Source of the DNA: a virus
IMG/VR virus record: IMGVR_UViG_3300045988_116708
Span: 1-64,000 of that record
Direction: 5' to 3' (one strand)
Length of the DNA: 64,000 nucleotides
The position numbers and the translations under genes were made by a program. Shown here one piece after another: positions 2,990 to 50,322 of this stretch; within the stretch, counting starts at the first letter, position 1; each line of letters begins with the position of its first letter. The notes below the pieces were generated by a model. The model saw nothing but the letters and a program-made list of their open reading frames with translations, was not told the origin of the DNA and made no database searches.

Positions 2990-3832
2990 ATGGAGGAAAA
3001 TAATCAAGTTACAGAATTACAGATTATTCAGGCCAAACAAGCGGCTGAGTTTGCAATGACACCAGTAGGACAAACCGTGAAACAGTTTGAGGTCATGCAG
3101 CGCATGGCTAAGATGTACACTGAAAGTACAATTGTTCCTGAAGCTTATAAAGGGAATACAGGAAATTGTGTGATTGCGCTTGATATGGCAATGAGAATGA
3201 ATGCTAATCCGTTAATGATAATGCAGAATCTCTACGTTGTCAAGGGAAACCCGTCATGGTCAAGCAAGTTCCTTATCGCTACCATTAATATGAGTGGCAG
3301 ATATACTTCACTCAGATATCGGAAAAGAACGCTGGGGAAGGTTGGTAAAGTAAAATACAATGAAACAGTGTGGGATGCCACAAACAGACGCAATACAATC
3401 GTTGTAAAAGAGTTTGACGGTACTGATGTGGATAATATTGAATGTATTGCTTATGCCACTGAACTTTCTACTAAAGAAGTTCTTGAATCAGATCCGATAA
3501 CTATTGAAATGGCAATAAAAGAAGGGTGGTATACAAAGTCTGGGAGCAAATGGGTTACAATGCCAAATCTGATGCTTACTTATCGTGCGGCTGCTTTCTG
3601 GCAACGCGCCTATTGTCCTGAAATATCAATGGGATTCTTAACCAAGGAAGAAGTTGAAGATATTCAGGATACAGAATATGATGAAATTATTGATAAATCA
3701 GCAAAAGCTAATAAACTTGCCGAAATCGCAGCAAAAGCCGCAGGAGTTGAAGAACAACCAAAAGCAGAACAGCCGGTAAATCAGCCCCAAACTAAAGCAA
3801 ATGATAAACCTATTCAAAAAACGTTGTTATGA
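2990..3832 (+). CDS. recT: RecT-family single-strand annealing protein
   Basis: NCVIALDMAMRMNANPLMIMQNLYVVKGNPSWSSKF matches the RecT core pattern. It is followed by a YqaJ exonuclease. Confidence 0.8.
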   Translation: MEENNQVTELQIIQAKQAAEFAMTPVGQTVKQFEVMQRMAKMYTESTIVPEAYKGNTGNCVIALDMAMRMNANPLMIMQNLYVVKGNPSWSSKFLIATINMSGRYTSLRYRKRTLGKVGKVKYNETVWDATNRRNTIVVKEFDGTDVDNIECIAYATELSTKEVLESDPITIEMAIKEGWYTKSGSKWVTMPNLMLTYRAAAFWQRAYCPEISMGFLTKEEVEDIQDTEYDEIIDKSAKANKLAEIAAKAAGVEEQPKAEQPVNQPQTKANDKPIQKTLL

Positions 3833-4761
3833 TGGAAAATGATGGTGAAATATGGAAAGATATAGTTGGATATGAGGGTAGATACCAAGTGTCCAACTAT
3901 GGAAGAATTAAATCTCTTGATATTAACTTGCATAAACGTGATGGAAAGATAGAGTTTAGGAAAGGTAAAATTCTTAAAGCCAGTTTAAGCGCGTTTGGCT
4001 ATCCTCAGTACTGCTTTAGTTCCAGTTTTGGTAAACGAAAGCTCATGAGGATACATAGAGTTGTAGCAGAAACTTTTATTCCTAATCCTGATAAAAAGCC
4101 ATTTATTGATCATATAAATCGTATAAAGACAGATAATAATGTTAATAATTTGCGATGGTGCACAGGCAAGGAGAATATGAATAACCCATTAACAAGGGAA
4201 TGGTTGAAAAACTGTAGGCCAAGTTTCCACCATTCAGAAGAAGTTAAGAAAAAGATAGGGTTATTAAACAAAGGACGCATATTTAAAGAATCTACAAGAG
4301 AAAAACTCCGTATTAGAGGATTTCCAGTAATGCAGTTTACTATAAGTGGTGATTTTATCATGGAGTATAAAAGTCCTTATTATGCTCAAAGTGAGACAGG
4401 GGCATTACGAACCCATATTGTAGCTTGTTGTAATGGAAAAAGGAAAACAGCTGGTGGGTATAGATGGGTCTATAAAAAAAATTATAAAGGGAAGGATCTA
4501 CCTAATTTGGCAAATAAAAAGCGCATATACAAAACAGGTTATAAGCAAACAAAACAGGCTATAATAAATATGCGTAAATCTAAAGAAAAATACCGTAAAG
4601 CGGTATTAGTCTTTTCATTAGACGGTTCGTTTCTGTCTGAATATCCTTCAATTATTGAAGCAGGCAATGCAACAGGCACAAATTTCGGCTCAATATGTAA
4701 TTGTTGTAGGGGTAGAATTGGACAATCAAATGGTTACAGATTTAAATATAAAGATATATGA
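3829..4761 (+). CDS. HNH homing endonuclease (NUMOD4 + HNH_3 + C-terminal NUMOD/IENR-like DNA-binding repeats)
   Basis: WKDIVGYEGRYQVSNYGRIKS is a NUMOD4 motif. HRVVAETFIPNPDKKPFIDHINRIKTDNNVNNLRW is an HNH motif. GGYRWVYK and NGYRFKYK are repeated DNA-binding modules. Confidence 0.85.
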   Translation: MMENDGEIWKDIVGYEGRYQVSNYGRIKSLDINLHKRDGKIEFRKGKILKASLSAFGYPQYCFSSSFGKRKLMRIHRVVAETFIPNPDKKPFIDHINRIKTDNNVNNLRWCTGKENMNNPLTREWLKNCRPSFHHSEEVKKKIGLLNKGRIFKESTREKLRIRGFPVMQFTISGDFIMEYKSPYYAQSETGALRTHIVACCNGKRKTAGGYRWVYKKNYKGKDLPNLANKKRIYKTGYKQTKQAIINMRKSKEKYRKAVLVFSLDGSFLSEYPSIIEAGNATGTNFGSICNCCRGRIGQSNGYRFKYKDI

Positions 4762-5441
4762 TGAATTACAATTTTAAACAAAGGACCATAGGATGGATGC
4801 GTGAGCGTCTCGGAAACATTACTGGTAGCAATGTCGGCTTGCTTATGAAAAGCGGAAGAAACGACATGTTCAGCGATACTGCCAAAAATTATATTTTCCA
4901 AGTTGCGGCAGAACGGGCTATGAATCCAGAAATAGTTAATGATGATGTTGCGTTCGCCGAATATTTGTCTACTGTCAATGTAGAAAGCAAAGCAATGAGA
5001 TTCGGAACAGAGCAGGAAGCAAGTGCACGTGATTTGTATTCAAGACTGACAGGAAGGCATATTGTAGAAGTGGGGGCGTGTAAGCACCCCACTATCCCAA
5101 ACTTTGCAAGTAGTCCTGATGGTTTCTTCTACGATGAAGAGTTGAGGGAACGTGGATGTATTGAGATAAAATGTCCGTCTCAAAACACATTTATGAAATA
5201 TAAGAGTGAAGTTTATGATAATGATTCACTTCTCCAAGTTAAATATGAATATTTCTATCAGTGTATGGCACATGCAATGTGTTGTGATGCAGACTGGGTT
5301 GATTTTGTAGTTTACAACCCTTTCCAAATAGACCCTATTCACATTGTTCGTATACTACCAGACGAAAAGGTCTTTGCGGAAATGGAGAAACGCATTAAAA
5401 TGGCGGACGATATTATTAACCAAATAGCAGACATTGAATGA
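4758..5441 (+). CDS. YqaJ/lambda-Exo-like recombination exonuclease (PD-(D/E)XK)
   Basis: Contains RTIGWMRERLGNITGSNVG, GTEQEASARDLY, SSPDG and IEIKCP motifs. Confidence 0.8.
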   Translation: MMNYNFKQRTIGWMRERLGNITGSNVGLLMKSGRNDMFSDTAKNYIFQVAAERAMNPEIVNDDVAFAEYLSTVNVESKAMRFGTEQEASARDLYSRLTGRHIVEVGACKHPTIPNFASSPDGFFYDEELRERGCIEIKCPSQNTFMKYKSEVYDNDSLLQVKYEYFYQCMAHAMCCDADWVDFVVYNPFQIDPIHIVRILPDEKVFAEMEKRIKMADDIINQIADIE

Positions 5442-7254: not shown

Positions 7255-7731
7255 ATGAAAACTTTGCAAATCAGTGAACAAAAAGCTAGAGAACTCTACA
7301 AAAGTGGTTCCAGCGAGTTAAAATCTATTTTGGAAGAGTCTTTTGGAAAAGATTTTTTCTCTCAAAAGATAACAGATAGAGTTAAAACCTATGAAGATGC
7401 ATGTCGCGAATTAAGTACCAGTCCTCTTGATGAAAATAAGTTGATGAAACTCGGTCTTACTAAACATGATATTGCTTATCAAAAGTTGGTAACCATTATC
7501 AAGGCCCTTAACGAAGGTTGGGTACCGGATGTATGTGATAGTAGTGTATATAGATGGTACCCGTGGTTCAAGACTAATGGTTCTCCTTCCTCTTTCGCTT
7601 TCGACGGTTCGGATTGCGGTAGTGCGTTTGCGATTGCGGGTAGCGGGTCTCGCCTTTGCTTGAAAAGTAAAGAATTGTCAGAGTATTGTGGTAAACAATT
7701 CATTGACCTTTGGAAACAGTTCATTATTTAA
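7255..7731 (+). CDS. DGR variable protein 1 (target gene carrying VR1)
   Basis: ATG at 7255 of track ORF 7168..7731. Paralogous to 7747..8127 (ALNEGWxPD, YPWF, SSFAF, AIAGSGSRL, QFIDxWK). VR1 lies near the C-terminus. Confidence 0.85.
   Translation: MKTLQISEQKARELYKSGSSELKSILEESFGKDFFSQKITDRVKTYEDACRELSTSPLDENKLMKLGLTKHDIAYQKLVTIIKALNEGWVPDVCDSSVYRWYPWFKTNGSPSSFAFDGSDCGSAFAIAGSGSRLCLKSKELSEYCGKQFIDLWKQFII
7582..7655 (+). repeat. DGR variable repeat VR1
   Basis: 74 bp. It differs from the TR at 13 positions, all of them TR adenines. Confidence 0.9.
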
Positions 7732-7746
7732 CTAAATATTATCATC

Positions 7747-8127
7747 ATGAAAAAAGAAAATAAAAAGATTACAGAGTTAGTCAAAACGTTTGAGGATGCC
7801 CGTAAGCTGACCGGCAGACCGGATGTTCCTGACTTTTCCAATCTTCCCACTGACATGCGCAAACATTTTGAGGCACAGTATAAGATGATTGTAATTGCAG
7901 AAGCCCTTAACGAGGGATGGATTCCTGATTGGGATAATTATAATGAATATAAGTATTATCCTTGGTTTGAAATGTCTCCTTCCTCTTTCGCTTTCCTCGG
8001 TTCGGCTTGCGATGGTGCGATTGCGATTGCGGGTAGCGGGTCTCGCCTTAAATTTCGGACACGCGAGCTTGCAAATTATGCAGCAGAGCAATTTATTGAT
8101 ATTTGGAAAGATATCCAGATAGGATAG
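7747..8127 (+). CDS. DGR variable protein 2 (target gene carrying VR2)
   Basis: 126-aa paralogue of the upstream target; VR2 lies near the C-terminus. Confidence 0.85.
   Translation: MKKENKKITELVKTFEDARKLTGRPDVPDFSNLPTDMRKHFEAQYKMIVIAEALNEGWIPDWDNYNEYKYYPWFEMSPSSFAFLGSACDGAIAIAGSGSRLKFRTRELANYAAEQFIDIWKDIQIG
7975..8048 (+). repeat. DGR variable repeat VR2
   Basis: 74 bp. It differs from the TR at 14 positions, all of them TR adenines. Confidence 0.9.
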
Positions 8128-8150
8128 GATATAAAGGTTGCCTGTCCTTG

Positions 8151-8224
8151 TCTCCTTCCTCTTTCGCTTTCAACGATTCGAATTACGATAATGCAAATGC
8201 GAATGCAGGTAGCAGGTCTCACCT
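8151..8224 (+). repeat. DGR template repeat (TR)
   Basis: 74-bp non-coding copy with 18 adenines, giving the AAY-rich frame SSFAFNDSNYDNANANAGSRSHL. It lies directly upstream of the RT. Confidence 0.9.
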
Positions 8225-8331
8225 ATGTTACAATAATCCAATGGGCAGGGGCCTCACCTCTTGGTGGAAAATAACAATTCAAACGGTGTCGGTAGGGCTT
8301 ATCCGAAGACTCTTATTAGAAACAAAGGCTT

Positions 8332-9318
8332 ATGAAACGATTTGGAAATTTATACTATCGTATTTGTGACATTGATAACCTTTACCTTGCATATACCAAA
8401 GCAAGAAAAGGCAAGGGAAATACTTATGGGGTCATTCAATTTGAGAAAGAATTGGATGACAACATAAATACCCTTCATAAGGAACTGTCAGAAGGTAAAT
8501 ACGTTACTTCTGAATATCAAACTTTTATCATACATGATCCTAAGGAACGTGAAATATACCGGCTCCCTTTCCGTGATCGTGTTGTTCATCATGCGATAAT
8601 GAATATCCTCGAAGATATATGGACTCCGATATTCATTTCACATACTTATTCATGTATTAAGGGCAGAGGTATCCATGGAGTAATGAAACATCTAAAGAAA
8701 GATTTGAAAGATATCCAAAATACAAAATATTGCCTGAAAATGGATATTCGTAAATACTATCCGTCAATAGATCATTTGATACTTAAGAATATTGTCCGAA
8801 AGAAGGTTAAGGACAAACGTCTTCTTAAGTTACTCGACGGTATTATTGATTCTGCTCCAGGAATACCTATCGGTAATTATCTTTCTCAGTTCTTTGCAAA
8901 CTTGTATCTATCTTACTTTGACCACTGGCTTAAAGAGGAAAGACGTATAAAGTATTATTATAGATATGCTGATGATATGGTAATACTTTCATCAAACAAA
9001 GAAGAGCTTCACTCTCTGCTTGGAGATATAAAATCATATCTGCATAATAAGCTTCATTTAAATTTAAAAGACAATTATCAAATATTCCCGGTTGATAATA
9101 GAGGAATTGACTTTGTTGGCTATGTTTTCTTTCACACTCATATTTTAATGCGGAAAAGTATCAAGAAAAACTTCTGTAGAAAAGTAGCAGTGTTGAACAA
9201 AAAGAAAACTACATCCTGCAACTGCAAGATAGCACTTTGTTCATGGATGGGATGGGCAAAACATTGTAATTCAAAGCACTTAATTAAAACTGTAATCAAA
9301 AATGAAAAGGTTTTCTGA
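8332..9318 (+). CDS. DGR reverse transcriptase
   Basis: Contains PKEREIYRLPFRDRVVHHAI, LKMDIRKYYPSIDH, GIPIGNYLSQFFANLYL and YYRYADDMVIL. These RT motifs 1-5 include the DGR-typical GxxxSQ. Confidence 0.9.
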   Translation: MKRFGNLYYRICDIDNLYLAYTKARKGKGNTYGVIQFEKELDDNINTLHKELSEGKYVTSEYQTFIIHDPKEREIYRLPFRDRVVHHAIMNILEDIWTPIFISHTYSCIKGRGIHGVMKHLKKDLKDIQNTKYCLKMDIRKYYPSIDHLILKNIVRKKVKDKRLLKLLDGIIDSAPGIPIGNYLSQFFANLYLSYFDHWLKEERRIKYYYRYADDMVILSSNKEELHSLLGDIKSYLHNKLHLNLKDNYQIFPVDNRGIDFVGYVFFHTHILMRKSIKKNFCRKVAVLNKKKTTSCNCKIALCSWMGWAKHCNSKHLIKTVIKNEKVF

Positions 9319-9619
9319 TTTTGGAATTGATATTGACGCGGGACGTAATATTTTCCCTGTACAGCAAATATCAATAACCGATATACTCAACTGTGAGATA
9401 GAGGTACTTGACTATGAATCTGGAGTTAAAACTCAACATGGAGATAATCGTTGCGTAGTCAAGATTAGGCATGAAGGAGCTGAATATAAATTCTTTACTA
9501 ACTCTTCTCCGATAAAAGAGGCACTTAGTAAAATTTCCAAAGAAGATTTTCCATTTATAGCTACAGTACGTATCAAGAAAATAGGTACTGGTAATAATAA
9601 AATGTATTATTTCACTTAA
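9302..9619 (+). CDS. Hypothetical beta-rich protein coupled to the RT
   Basis: 105 aa; its start overlaps the RT 3' end by 17 nt. Confidence 0.6.
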   Translation: MKRFSDFGIDIDAGRNIFPVQQISITDILNCEIEVLDYESGVKTQHGDNRCVVKIRHEGAEYKFFTNSSPIKEALSKISKEDFPFIATVRIKKIGTGNNKMYYFT

Positions 9620-9625
9620 AAGATA

Positions 9626-10117
9626 TTGTATATGAAAATTACAATCAATAAACCAACTGAATTTGAGGCTGTCTACCTGAAAGTAGATGCAGGTGTTCGC
9701 TATTGGGAGGATGCAATAGTAAACGGAATAAGAGACATTGATTTATACGAGAGTAATGGTATAGGCAGCCCTCTTATTCCTTGCGCTGTACAAATAAAAG
9801 AAGAACCTGACTATAATATATATTCAGACCATTATCGTTGGAGACCTATTATAACGATTGAAACTGGTCGAATAGTCAACTGGATGCAGGGAACAACTGC
9901 TAATGTTCACTACAAAGTGTGTGATGATTTTATATGTGATATTGTTGATGAAGATGATAGTGCTATTGTTTCTTATGACGGCTATGTGCCTAAGATCATG
10001 TGTCCGGCAGATAAAGGATATGGTGACTATATCATTATGAATATTGACGAAAACGGATTTATTCAAGGATGGAATAAGGAACTAATTAAAGAACTTGTAA
10101 AACAAGAGGAGGATTAA
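9626..10117 (+). CDS. Hypothetical protein
   Basis: 163-aa acidic ORF. Confidence 0.6.
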   Translation: MYMKITINKPTEFEAVYLKVDAGVRYWEDAIVNGIRDIDLYESNGIGSPLIPCAVQIKEEPDYNIYSDHYRWRPIITIETGRIVNWMQGTTANVHYKVCDDFICDIVDEDDSAIVSYDGYVPKIMCPADKGYGDYIIMNIDENGFIQGWNKELIKELVKQEED

Positions 10118-39179: not shown

Positions 39180-40796
39180 ATGGCAAAACCTAAAATTCCA
39201 AATCAGAAAAAGAAGTATCAAGAACTTAACAGTCGGATAAATAGGTATGTCGTTCTTGTTGAGCAGATATACGACACACTGAATTTGGACGCCGCCAAAG
39301 CTGTTTCACGTACGGAATATTCCTCTGATAGCAATAAACCGTTTAAATGGTCCGATTACCCTCAAACTAAAAAACAAATTGACGACATACAAAGGCATTT
39401 CGTAGAAGATATAAACGCAATTATCTATCGTGGTACGACCGAAGAATGGAAAAATAGTAATGAAGCACAGGATTTGATAGCAAACAGAGTATTAAAAGCA
39501 TATAACGCACAAGTTGATAGAGAGAAATATAAAGTTTTGTATCAAGTAAATTCTGATGCTCTGAAAGCATTTCAAAACCGGAAGGATAAAGGATTCAATA
39601 TATCGGCAAAACTCTGGCAGCAATCTATGATCTACAAAGAGGAATTGGAGGCTGCGATCTCATGCGCTATTCAAAAAGGAACCAGCGCTGTTACGTTGAG
39701 TAAGCAAATATCTCAATACTTACTTGATTTTCCATCACTGCAAAAAGATTATAAAGACAGATACGGAAGTGCTGAACATATACAAGATTGTGAATACAGA
39801 TCTATCCGCCTAGCCCGTTCGGAGATAAACATGGCTTATCGAACATCCGAAAATGAACGTTGGAAGCAAATGGATTTCGTAGTAGGATATGAAATTAAAT
39901 TAAGTTCCTCTCATCACAACCGTATGCCACATGGAGATATTTGTGATACACTTGCCGGAAAATATCCTAAAGATTTCAGCTGGACAGGATGGCACCCGAA
40001 CGACTTATGCTATAAAGTCCCTATCCTCAAAACAGAAGAAGAATTCTGGGAATGGGATGGACTGAGCGATGTTTCTACAGAAAGTATTAATGAAGTAAAG
40101 GATGTTCCTGACGAATTTAAAAAATGGGTACTTGACAACCAACAAAAGATTGAGAAAGCGCGGGAAAGAAACACCTTACCTTATTTTTTGAGAGATAACA
40201 AATCAATTGTTCAGAATATAAATACTGAGAATTCAGCTAAAGAGCTTGTTAATCGTGCTTCTTTAGTTGGGAAGGAGGTACAAAGTTTAGCAGAATCCAT
40301 CGCTAAAAATAATAAAGGATTTGTAACTCCAATCAATTACAAAAGCATTTCATCAATAACAAGAAAAGCGACAACGGAGGGTATAACTCCATACGATATA
40401 AAAGACGCAGTTAGGACGACAATCATAGTTCCCAAATCACAAATAGATCAAGTCTTGAACGAACTATCTGAAAACGATTCGTTTGTGCGACTGAAAAGAC
40501 AAAAGCCGGAATCATTTATGGGATATAGTGGCAATATAGTTAATATTCAAACATCTAACGGATTAATTGCTGAGATTCAAGTTAATACAGACCGTATGAT
40601 TTATGCCAAAGAAAAACCGGAAGACGCAAAACGAATTCTTGGAGAAAAACGTTGGAAGAATATACAAAATCAAACAGGTATGAAGGGGGGGCTGGGGCAT
40701 AAATATTATGAAGAATGGCGAGTATTAGACAAAGCTGATAAAAAGGCGCAAAAAATAGTTGAAAAATCAATCGAATATTATAGTCATTTCCAATAA
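39180..40796 (+). CDS. MuF/SPP1-gp7 head-morphogenesis protein fused to a C-terminal RelA/SpoT-like (RSH/toxSAS-type) nucleotidyltransferase domain
   Basis: The MuF core is EYRSIRLARSEINMAYR and WHPNDLC. The C-terminal region (about 40287-40796) has YKSISSITRKA, IKDAVRTTIIV, GYSGNIVNIQTSNGLIAEIQVNT and GHKYYEEWR. These match the alarmone-synthetase motif order. Confidence 0.65.
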   Translation: MAKPKIPNQKKKYQELNSRINRYVVLVEQIYDTLNLDAAKAVSRTEYSSDSNKPFKWSDYPQTKKQIDDIQRHFVEDINAIIYRGTTEEWKNSNEAQDLIANRVLKAYNAQVDREKYKVLYQVNSDALKAFQNRKDKGFNISAKLWQQSMIYKEELEAAISCAIQKGTSAVTLSKQISQYLLDFPSLQKDYKDRYGSAEHIQDCEYRSIRLARSEINMAYRTSENERWKQMDFVVGYEIKLSSSHHNRMPHGDICDTLAGKYPKDFSWTGWHPNDLCYKVPILKTEEEFWEWDGLSDVSTESINEVKDVPDEFKKWVLDNQQKIEKARERNTLPYFLRDNKSIVQNINTENSAKELVNRASLVGKEVQSLAESIAKNNKGFVTPINYKSISSITRKATTEGITPYDIKDAVRTTIIVPKSQIDQVLNELSENDSFVRLKRQKPESFMGYSGNIVNIQTSNGLIAEIQVNTDRMIYAKEKPEDAKRILGEKRWKNIQNQTGMKGGLGHKYYEEWRVLDKADKKAQKIVEKSIEYYSHFQ

Positions 40797-46430: not shown

Positions 46431-46501
46431 GCGGAGATGGTGTAATGGTTGCATATATATCATCCAGATATCAGGTTACGGTTCAAATCCGTATCTCCGC
46501 T
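46431..46501 (+). tRNA. Phage-encoded tRNA-like gene, best read as tRNA-Gly(UCC) with an atypical anticodon loop
   Basis: Acceptor GCGGAGA/TCTCCGC. D-arm GTGT-AATGGTT-GCAT. T-arm TACGG-TTCAAAT-CCGTA. Discriminator T. Anticodon arm TATAT-CATCCAG-ATATC, with A at position 33 and a T-C mismatch at the stem top. Confidence 0.55.
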
Positions 46502-46578
46502 CTGTTTTTTGAGAATCTGATTTGTTGTTCATAATTTAATGTCGGTTGTCTGTGAAGATAGCCGATAAAAAATAATTG

Positions 46579-48927: not shown

Positions 48928-50322
48928 TTAGTATTGTTTGTATTGCTTAGATACCTTATATTCTTTTCCTGCATAATTAAATGTCCAAATAAATATAGGC
49001 AAATAAACATATCTCATTTGACCGCCTAAATTTGTTGTTTGTCCGGCTGCTAAAGCGCCCAATTTTGATGCATCATCTGTATATAATACAATATTTTCAC
49101 TCAATCCATCTTTTACCTCAAACTTAGTAAGAGATATCTCTTTAGAACTTGTGTTGGTTATGTAACAATACACAGACCCTGTTATATAACCATTAATGGA
49201 TACAATAGATGAAGAGCTTATACCCAGATTCATAAAATCGGAAATCTCAGCTGATACAACTTCGCAAGTGGCAGTATGGGCACCATCTTCTGTAGTTATT
49301 GTTATTGTAGAAGTACCTTCCTTCAATGCTGTAACCTTTCCATTATTGTCTACAGAAACAGTGTTGGGTGCAGAACTGCTAAATTTTACATTTTTATTCT
49401 CTGCATTTTCAGGTAAAATAGAATATGTCAATGTATAGCTTTCTCCATTCAGAATCTTAACTGAAGATTCTGTAAACTGAACTCCTTTTACCGAAAAAGG
49501 CAAAACATTCACAGTACACTGCGCTTTAAAATTCCCATCATTAGTAGTGGCAATTATGTTACATGTACCTTTTGCCAATGCAGTCACCAATCCGTCTTCT
49601 ACCTTTGCAATATTAGGATCGCTGGAAGACCATTTGATACTTTTGTCCTTTGCATTTTCAGGAGATACAGTAGCTGTTAGAGTAAATGACTTGCCGGCTT
49701 CAATAGATTTAGTTGTTTCATTCAATGTAACTCCTGTAACCTTAATAGGATTCACTTTAACAACACATTTGGCGTAGGTATCACTTCCTTTGACTTTGAC
49801 TGTAATAGTACATTCACCATCGGAAACGGCTGTAACCTCGCCATCTGCATTAACCGTTGCTATAGTTTTATCCGAAGACTCCCACTCCACTTCTTTGTTG
49901 GTAGTATTTTCAGGTTCTATCGTATACTCCAAACGGAATGATTCACCGGTAGTCATCGTCTTCTCACTCTCAGATAGTTTGATATCAGTTGCTTCAATTG
50001 GAGTTACAGTGACCTTACATATATCTTTCAATTTTAGATTAAAAGAAGAAACTGATATAGTAACCTCTCCAACAGACTTTCCATAAACAATACCGTTTTC
50101 AACAGTTGCAATTGTTTCATCAGAAGAATTCCATTCATATTCGGGAGCGGGTAAATCTGCTGGCGAATGGCTGACAGTGAGAGTTATTTTCTCACCAACC
50201 TTTACTGAAGCTTCACTTTTAGAAATTTCGATAGATTGTACAACAGGTTTGTCATCATCGCCACAAGAAGATAATGATAGAATAGAAACAATAGATAGTA
50301 ACAATAAAATAGTTCGTTTCAT
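48928..50322 (-). CDS. Surface lipoprotein with five tandem Big_2 (bacterial Ig-like) domains and an unknown C-terminal domain
   Basis: Signal/lipobox LSLSSCG. There are five repeats of the pattern V.VG....L.....P.......W.SSD..IATV...G.VTA...G...I. Confidence 0.8.
   Translation of the reverse strand: MKRTILLLLSIVSILSLSSCGDDDKPVVQSIEISKSEASVKVGEKITLTVSHSPADLPAPEYEWNSSDETIATVENGIVYGKSVGEVTISVSSFNLKLKDICKVTVTPIEATDIKLSESEKTMTTGESFRLEYTIEPENTTNKEVEWESSDKTIATVNADGEVTAVSDGECTITVKVKGSDTYAKCVVKVNPIKVTGVTLNETTKSIEAGKSFTLTATVSPENAKDKSIKWSSSDPNIAKVEDGLVTALAKGTCNIIATTNDGNFKAQCTVNVLPFSVKGVQFTESSVKILNGESYTLTYSILPENAENKNVKFSSSAPNTVSVDNNGKVTALKEGTSTITITTEDGAHTATCEVVSAEISDFMNLGISSSSIVSINGYITGSVYCYITNTSSKEISLTKFEVKDGLSENIVLYTDDASKLGALAAGQTTNLGGQMRYVYLPIFIWTFNYAGKEYKVSKQYKQY

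Follow-up and report, generated by a model that had tools for sequence, protein, structure and literature searches.

Diversity-generating retroelements (DGRs) have been viewed mainly in terms of ligand-binding proteins, on a surface or in the virion, that have C-type-lectin folds, and Avd has been seen as the partner of the reverse transcriptase (RT); about 74% of DGRs possess Avd, the others not. The element described here lies in a 64,000-nucleotide stretch of viral DNA (positions 1 to 64,000 of IMG/VR record IMGVR_UViG_3300045988_116708, referred to as the window). It comprises two small tandem target genes, T1 and T2, each with a variable repeat (VR1 and VR2), followed by a single template repeat (TR) and an RT gene (Table 1). 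Our analyses make it very probable that this is an active, Avd-less DGR in the early operon of a temperate siphovirus-like Bacteroides phage.

The paradigm for such elements is the DGR of Bordetella phage BPP-1 (mtd-avd-TR-brt). The window shares with it an RT of the same length (328 aa, 35% identity) with the motifs IGxxxSQ and YADD, adenine-specific differences between TR and VRs, and a GC-rich 3' boundary that resembles the initiation of mutagenic homing (IMH) element and at which TR and VR differ. Unlike BPP-1, the window has no Avd, carries two small early targets in place of a tail-fibre tip, and yielded no detectable C-type-lectin fold in those targets. Its VR is also shorter (74 bp, compared with 134 bp in BPP-1), with 14 mutable adenines, and ends 25 codons before the stop codon.

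The Avd-less DGRs of lineage 3 (Wu et al. 2018, PMC5758913; crAssphage LMMB, PMC7290462; Buchavirus cr52_1 and cr56_1) have the same target-TR-RT order without avd, RTs that are 50-58% identical to that of the window, and a matching spacer RNA and helix around the TR, both of which covary. Their adjacent target, however, is an Mtd-like protein or a tail-collar fibre with a C-type-lectin domain. Where a small protein of the T1/T2 family is present in them, it is a remote second target, whereas in the window the small proteins are the sole targets, arranged in tandem beside the TR. In cr52_1 and cr56_1 the remote VR of the small homologue matches the TR beside an Mtd-like tail protein.

A non-structural second DGR target has been described in Quimbyvirus (Benler et al. 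2021, PMC8008677) and is echoed in PMC12629997. Distant homologues of the window targets (~30% identity) occur in LoVEphage, phage Versailles and several crAss-like phages, and the Quimbyvirus/LoVEphage second target aligns at 100% coverage and carries a VR. In LoVEphage, in contrast to the window, the target is remote from the RT, shares its TR with a ~110-nt tail-fibre VR and has an insertion of ~25 residues. The Quimbyvirus/LoVEphage target was described as having a C-type lectin domain, which our model of the window protein does not support. The DGR itself is of a known kind, and the target family has already been noticed as a remote second target. Features for which we found no earlier description are a cassette given over to tandem targets within an early operon, a confident target model that lacks a lectin fold, a hairpin confined to the VRs and created by fixed A-to-G differences, a helix enclosing the TR, and an open reading frame (ORF) resembling the oligonucleotide/oligosaccharide-binding (OB) fold that is coupled to the RT.

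Repeats and adenine-restricted variation

The original prediction placed one TR and two VRs at the coordinates given in Table 1, with 18 adenines in the TR, 13 and 14 mismatches in VR1 and VR2, and 56 identical non-adenine positions. All of these values proved exact on realignment and with a repeat finder. In the base-by-base comparison, every one of the differences falls on a TR adenine (13/13 in VR1 and 14/14 in VR2, 27/27 overall), with a chance probability of 8e-11 for VR1 and 7e-12 for VR2 given 18 adenines among 74 positions, and all 56 non-adenine positions are the same across the three copies. VR1 and VR2 are unlike each other at six A-templated sites. Only the predicted 74-bp extent needs adjustment, since the homology in fact continues for one more base, position 75, which is A in the TR and T in both VRs.

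Both VRs are in frame inside ORFs, and the TR translated in the VR frame reads SPSSFAFNDSNYDNANANAGS. Because TR positions 1 to 21 hold no adenine, perfect homology would be kept there after mutagenic copying. This 21-nt block occurs as three exact copies in the window against 0.02 expected by chance, and no additional VR-like copies were found on either strand of the window. The mutable core that follows codes for a computed ~5e7 protein variants per target, across eight codons, which is a small repertoire for a DGR.

To assess natural variation at the repeats, IMG/VR was scanned for exact matches to the A-free block, and this gave 93 stretches from related phage contigs; 43 loci with both TR and VRs supplied 74 distinct TR/VR pairs. 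The variation measured in this way is variation between metagenomic assemblies and not that of one population over time. Across the 74 pairs, 841 of 1195 A sites differ as against 48 of 4281 non-A sites, and most of the latter come from TR variants with a 6-nt deletion that shifts the register. Among 112 distinct in-register VR copies, variation lies almost solely at TR-adenine positions, and at most 4 of the 112 copies deviate in any non-A column. At the TR-adenine sites in positions 22 to 53, all four bases are seen in nature.

The same pattern was recovered at the protein level. The 120 best T1 homologues are 79-96% identical to it and fall in separate 90%-identity clusters. More than 120 such clusters hold the same 158-aa protein and are distinguished essentially by eight codons. 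In the alignment of 121 close homologues, only codons 117, 118, 120-123, 125 and 127 are hypervariable (column entropy 1.4-3.6 bits). AAY codons encode 12 to 14 residue types, and the non-A codons between them are invariant. The earlier expectation of polymorphism confined to A-templated sites was borne out in this comparison of assemblies (112 VR copies, 74 TR/VR pairs and 121 proteins). Because the variation among the 112 VR copies sits almost only at the TR adenines of positions 22 to 53, the element is evidently active in nature.

The 3' end of the repeat behaves differently from this core. Almost without exception the VRs have G at positions 57, 64 and 71 and T at position 75, and the TR has A at all four. 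Position 57 is a silent third-codon site and yet is G in 110 of the 112 copies, so these four sites are fixed donor/recipient differences and not products of mutagenesis. The original claim of adenine-directed mutagenesis therefore holds for positions 22 to 53 and not for these last four A/non-A differences. Fixed TR/VR differences fit the definition of IMH and of its TR counterpart, IMH* (PMC5758913), and the GC-rich stretch at positions 54-79 looks like an IMH with a non-identical IMH* in the TR and would presumably function as one. Within it, positions 55-59 pair with 68-72 in a 5-bp hairpin that is completed by G57 and G71. Of 111 VR copies, 107 keep the whole stem; each of the TR variants (10/10) has only three to four of its five pairs. 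We infer that this VR-only hairpin identifies the VRs as recipients, with the TR as donor. Beyond this small hairpin inside the IMH-like element, no separate GC-rich inverted repeat of the BPP-1 kind was found downstream of the VRs.

An alternative is that the locus is a decayed, inactive remnant whose TR/VR differences are old. Incomplete DGR cassettes are indeed frequent in crAss-like phages (PMC7290462), and related contigs exist in which the RT is deleted (L063) or in which a deletion runs from VR1 to the TR (L080). In the window, however, the RT ORF is intact with its catalytic motifs, the two VRs of this one genome differ at the six A sites noted above, and the non-A repeat positions are near-invariant while the A positions are near-randomised among otherwise 87-96% identical proteins. 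We consider decay very improbable for the window.

In L063 (IMGVR_UViG_7000000646_000245), in the TR region corresponding to window positions ~8268-9385, the RT gene is gone, and both targets and the TR are kept; the spacer is joined directly into the downstream 105-aa ORF, making this a natural RT-deletion derivative. In L080 (IMGVR_UViG_3300045988_137400) the upstream flank of VR1 (…TGGTATCCGTGGTTCAAG…) precedes the TR, the layout expected from homologous recombination between VR1 and TR that deletes the 3' part of T1 and the whole of T2.

Reverse transcriptase, template RNA and candidate accessory genes

The RT ORF contains PIGNYLSQFFANLYL and YADD, and aligns end to end with the Bordetella phage bRT (E 3e-61). 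Its IGNYLSQ aligns with IGSLTSQ of bRT and matches the DGR RT signature [I/V/L]GxxxSQ (PMC7826257), and its R73 aligns with R74 of bRT. Both the IGxxxSQ motif and R74 promote adenine mutagenesis in bRT (PMC7826257). The top matches of the window RT are the DGR RTs of crAss-like phages, at 50-58.5% identity; it is 50% identical to the RT of LMMB, which has been assigned to lineage 3 (PMC7290462).

Against the NCBIfam models for group II intron, retron and defence-associated RTs (DRTs), the window RT scored below every curated cut-off (122 against 300, 58 against 235, 76 against 200 and 49 against 390). These sub-threshold matches, to group II, Drt3a and retron models, are what could be said for an RT of another prokaryotic class (group II intron, retron or defence-associated DRT/Abi) beside coincidental repeats. 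The scores lie far under the cut-offs, the motif is IGxxxSQ and not QGxxxSP, the protein is colinear with bRT along its full length, no intron RNA domains were found, and the sole Rfam match is to an RT-associated spacer motif. We regard another RT class as hardly credible here, and the sequence evidence supports a DGR RT, as first proposed: full-length similarity to bRT, the IGxxxSQ motif and nearest relatives that are DGR RTs, with non-DGR models far below threshold. Together with the population variation, this identity favours the adenine-directed mutagenic retrohoming signature that had been read from the window.

Two RNA structures were found around the TR. In all eight DGRs aligned (8/8, from this lineage and from crAss-like phages), a box AGGUU(G) with six to seven variable bases stands immediately 5' of the TR and pairs with a partner immediately 3' of it, made up of the complement of those bases and GACCU. 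In this TR-enclosing helix, 94.8% of alignment cells are paired, 8 of 12 pairs are compensatory, and the covariation is 0.78, where slid controls reach at most 0.25. Covariation is complete in the variable part, and the pattern is plain in the raw sequences. This covariation argues that the TR is presented as a loop closed by a long-range helix.

Between the helix and the RT gene, a spacer RNA resembles Rfam RT-17 (RF03020), with 33.4 bits, below the gathering score of 40.4, and E 7e-5 for a 301-nt search. RNA motifs of this type are found beside RT genes, and RT-10 sits between TR and brt in BPP-1 (PMC5737381). An alignment of nine sequences (the window, a second haplotype and seven crAss-like phage DGRs) gave 95.2% of cells paired in the spacer helices, 9 of 13 pairs compensatory, and a covariation of 0.70, where slid controls reached no more than 0.17.

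The mechanism with the best support for the locus is mutagenic retrohoming of the BPP-1 kind. Repeat anatomy, adenine-restricted natural variation, RT identity and RNA covariation are direct observations, and cDNA synthesis and retrohoming would proceed by analogy with the Bordetella phage paradigm. A transcript from ~8135 to ~8325 would fold so that the long-range helix closes the TR into a loop, followed by the structured spacer RNA. The RT would then copy the TR into cDNA, placing random bases opposite adenines, and the cDNA would replace the homologous 74-bp segment in either of the tandem target genes. The 3' limit of transfer would be set by the GC-rich IMH-like element, where fixed G residues (A in the TR) form the VR-only hairpin and keep the VRs as recipients and the TR as donor, and the 5' limit by the 21-nt adenine-free block, which stays perfectly homologous. 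Only the 14 adenines at TR positions 22-53 would be mutagenised, recoding eight codons on the second strand of a hairpin in the target protein and the loop that follows it.

The organisation of the cassette recurs. In a sample of 43 diverse loci encoding a target-family member, a related RT (52-70% identity) is present in 24, as a rule following two or three tandem targets at a distance of 0.2-1.4 kb downstream, and 23 show the arrangement of the window, with the small proteins as sole targets, in tandem directly upstream of the TR. In many of the RT-less loci (the L128-L141 group), two family members lie ~2.9 kb apart with a VRR-NUC-like gene ~7 kb downstream.

Avd appears to be absent from the locus. 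None of the flanking ORFs matched the 23S_rRNA_IVP/Avd profile, and tblastn with BPP-1 Avd returned nothing credible. The Avd-less state fits the lineage 3 DGRs of Bacteroides and crAss-like phages (PMC5758913, PMC7290462).

One candidate for an accessory factor, with a predicted OB-like beta-barrel, is the product of a conserved 105-aa ORF that begins within the last bases of the RT gene. The ORF adjoins the RT in 12 of the 24 RT-bearing loci, directly following it in 11 and lying between target and RT in L110, and only 1 of the 19 RT-less loci has it (Fisher p 0.002, or 0.009 with near-identical loci collapsed). Its AlphaFold2 (AF2) model has a predicted local distance difference test score (pLDDT) of 89.6 and the element order b1-b3, helix, b4-b5, which is that of the OB fold. 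Comparison with the PDB gave only weak, non-significant matches, dominated by nucleic-acid-binding OB domains. The crAss-like loci that were examined do not have this ORF after the RT.

Two genes past the RT is an acidic 161-aa ORF with a computed isoelectric point (pI) of 4.4. The CH1 accessory gene, of 160-169 aa and pI 4.7, is found only in DGRs without avd (PMC5758913). Architecture E/CH1 of the lineage 3a Bacteroides DGRs (Wu et al. 2018) resembles the window in being Avd-less with a small acidic ORF nearby. It differs in that the window ORF was not seen to be conserved in diverse related loci. The 161-aa ORF is close to CH1 as published in size and pI and could perhaps correspond to it, and Architecture E may overlap with the window cassette.

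Target proteins and their possible role

T1 and T2 are paralogues (48% identity, E 1e-38), with T2 lacking the first ~35 residues. Neither matched a Pfam family. T1 has 2199 homologues, mostly of 158 aa, and phrog_11581, to which both belong, is a large uncharacterised phage protein family with 2859 representatives at 50% identity, mostly 150-165 aa and including some tandem fusions. A repeat homologue search with a 7-sequence profile returned mostly the same close homologues, and a locus search with P0152 gave none. Family members of 275-305 aa (P0121, P0122, P0131-P0136 and similar) match the 158-aa query twice, so the tandem target pair is fused into one ORF in other phages.

The AF2 model of T1, built from a 106-sequence alignment, is confident (pLDDT 91.9, predicted template modelling score 0.86). 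It has seven helices and one beta-hairpin, with helices through residue 85, the hairpin at 100-106/115-122, a loop and two C-terminal helices. In this model the variable residues lie on the second hairpin strand and the following loop. A Foldseek search of the model against the PDB gave a best E of 3.4 and template modelling (TM) scores of at most 0.23, with no C-type-lectin or immunoglobulin (Ig) match, and every hit in BFVD was an uncharacterised phage protein belonging to this family. When the target was searched against the PDB by sequence and by profile, only noise came back. A C-type-lectin fold, which is the usual DGR scaffold, was in this way tested for and not found, and a more sensitive structural comparison might find a remnant of it. 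Whole-domain homology to the lectin domain of the LoVEphage tail-collar fibre was considered and rejected, as the profile comparison aligns the 25-residue VR segment alone (hhalign probability 4%).

The VR ends 25-26 codons before the stop codon in the targets, a distance that is unusual for a DGR target (PMC5758913). The sequences themselves show no hydrophobic N-terminus and no signal peptide in either target. Since no such segment is present, since the gene has an early or non-structural location in four unrelated phage groups, and since its neighbours in LoVEphage are counter-defence genes, the targets are probably cytoplasmic binding proteins made early and involved in phage-host conflict, through counter-defence or the recognition of variable host factors.

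It is also conceivable, if rather unlikely, that the targets are virion-associated receptor-binding accessories, such as small adaptors docking on the tail fibre, and that the DGR serves host-range switching as in BPP-1. Tail proteins are the classical targets of phage DGRs, the homologue in Versailles carries the annotation 'tail protein', and in LoVEphage, cr52_1 and cr56_1 the small homologue has its VR in common with a tail fibre, both templated by one TR. The gene nevertheless lies in early, recombination, methyltransferase or small-ORF regions and not in the tail module in the window, Versailles, LoVEphage and the crAss-like phages. In LoVEphage it sits among methyltransferases and RtcB, with a VR that matches the tail-collar-fibre VR. 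The likeness to the fibre is confined to the VR segment, and the 'tail protein' label comes from automatic HHpred/PHROGs annotation. Should the targets prove to be tail-associated after all, this would be an ordinary phage DGR.

In LoVEphage (MW660583.1), a VR segment of ~110 nt is found both in the small non-structural homologue and in the tail-collar fibre (L095:6001-6585 and L100:9660-9849), so one TR serves two unrelated scaffolds that have only the VR cassette in common. The Mtd-like tail protein of cr52_1 (L101:995-2236) contains two in-frame stops under translation table 11, consistent with stop-codon recoding.

Several points weigh against an active DGR that diversifies early cytoplasmic proteins. 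The function of the targets has no homology support from any characterised protein, and the one labelled homologue, in Versailles, is called a tail protein. The variation is known from comparisons between metagenomic assemblies. There is no Avd or other proven accessory factor. The alignment of the TR-enclosing helix was assembled by hand and is thereby biased towards that structure. Shuffled sequences reach a minimum free energy (MFE) as good as that of the whole TR RNA, and the folding energy of the 5-bp hairpin is not significantly better than that of shuffled sequence (z -1.0 and -1.6). Because these energy scores, for the TR RNA and for the DNA downstream of the VRs, are not significant, the structural claims rest on covariation and not on energy.

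A more far-reaching possibility, which we put forward tentatively, is that the locus represents a widespread, undescribed class of DGR. Its targets would be small cytoplasmic early proteins in tandem copies, built on a helical scaffold that is neither lectin nor Ig; the OB-fold protein, translationally coupled to the RT, would replace Avd; the TR would be closed by the long-range helix; and the phage would hold, ready-made, a repertoire of proteins that bind variable host factors inside the cell, defence proteins for example. A common gut-phage DGR with small early targets only, on a different predicted scaffold, would extend the uses of DGRs to intracellular and perhaps counter-defence roles. 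The targets could also offer a compact natural scaffold (126-158 aa) for engineered diversification. Testable handles on the workings of Avd-less (lineage 3) DGRs are provided by the covarying helix around the TR, by the spacer RNA and by the OB-like ORF coupled to the RT.

Genomic context and neighbouring genes

The window comes from a temperate siphovirus-like Bacteroides phage, and the DGR sits in its early (recombination/replication) operon. Upstream are a divergent repressor/regulator pair, RecT, HNH, YqaJ and DUF1351 genes, and downstream DUF4494, Ant, a VRR-NUC-like gene and a replication initiator. The structural genes (TerL, portal, capsid, tape measure and a 2009-aa fibre) begin ~18 kb further on. 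Bacteroides contigs as long as 1 Mb carry homologues. When the region was compared with GenBank phages by megablast, there was no match; the closest GenBank phage relatives are distant, with a best TerL match of 58.6%. A sigma-70 promoter scan of the window was set aside as uninformative for Bacteroides.

Table 1. Coordinates of the DGR features within the window
Feature	Position	Strand	Details
Target gene 1 (T1)	7255-7731	+	158 aa; phrog_11581, E 1.7e-36; small non-structural protein
VR1	7582-7655	+	Codons 110-134 of T1; 13 mismatches to TR
IMH-like GC-rich end of VR1	7636-7653	+	5-bp hairpin GCGGG/CTCGC (terminator-like scan)
Target gene 2 (T2)	7747-8127	+	126 aa; phrog_11581, E 2.5e-24
VR2	7975-8048	+	Codons 77-101 of T2; 14 mismatches to TR
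IMH-like hairpin, end of VR2	8029-8046	+	Terminator-like scan and VR copy comparison
TR-enclosing long-range helix, 5' strand	8135-8147	+	AGGUU, bulged G, CCUGUCC
Template repeat (TR)	8151-8224	+	74 nt, 18 A; non-coding; begins 24 nt past T2 stop codon
TR section 1	8151-8171	+	A-free homology block (positions 1-21)
TR section 2	8172-8203	+	Mutagenic core, 14 adenines (positions 22-53)
TR section 3	8204-8229	+	IMH*-like end (positions 54-79), 3 to 4 fixed A differences
TR-enclosing helix, 3' strand	8243-8254	+	GGGCAGG plus GGCCU
RT-17-like spacer RNA	8250-8325	+	Helices P1-P3, GGUA...GAA internal loop
Spacer P1	8254-8258 with 8263-8267	+	
Spacer P2	8284-8290 with 8308-8314	+	
Spacer P3	8295-8296 with 8303-8304	+	
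DGR reverse transcriptase	8332-9318	+	328 aa; phrog_1423 'reverse transcriptase', E 3e-131; RVT_1
Conserved 105-aa ORF	9302-9619	+	phrog_19665; overlaps RT stop by 17 nt
Acidic 161-aa ORF	9632-10117	+	pI 4.4; two genes past RT

Some features outside the cassette were also recorded. An HNH homing-endonuclease-like gene (3829-4761, +) lies between RecT (2990-3832) and the YqaJ exonuclease gene (4758-5441), and its ends overlap both. A 538-aa head-morphogenesis protein (39180-40796, +) also matches the Bxa ADP-ribosyltransferase PHROG (phrog_16625, E 5e-68); a minor head protein may here carry a fused toxin-like domain. The minus strand (48928-50322) encodes a 464-aa protein of major-tail/structural type that has Ig-like domains, inside the otherwise plus-strand structural module, which also contains a single tRNA-Gly (TCC) at 46431-46502 (+).

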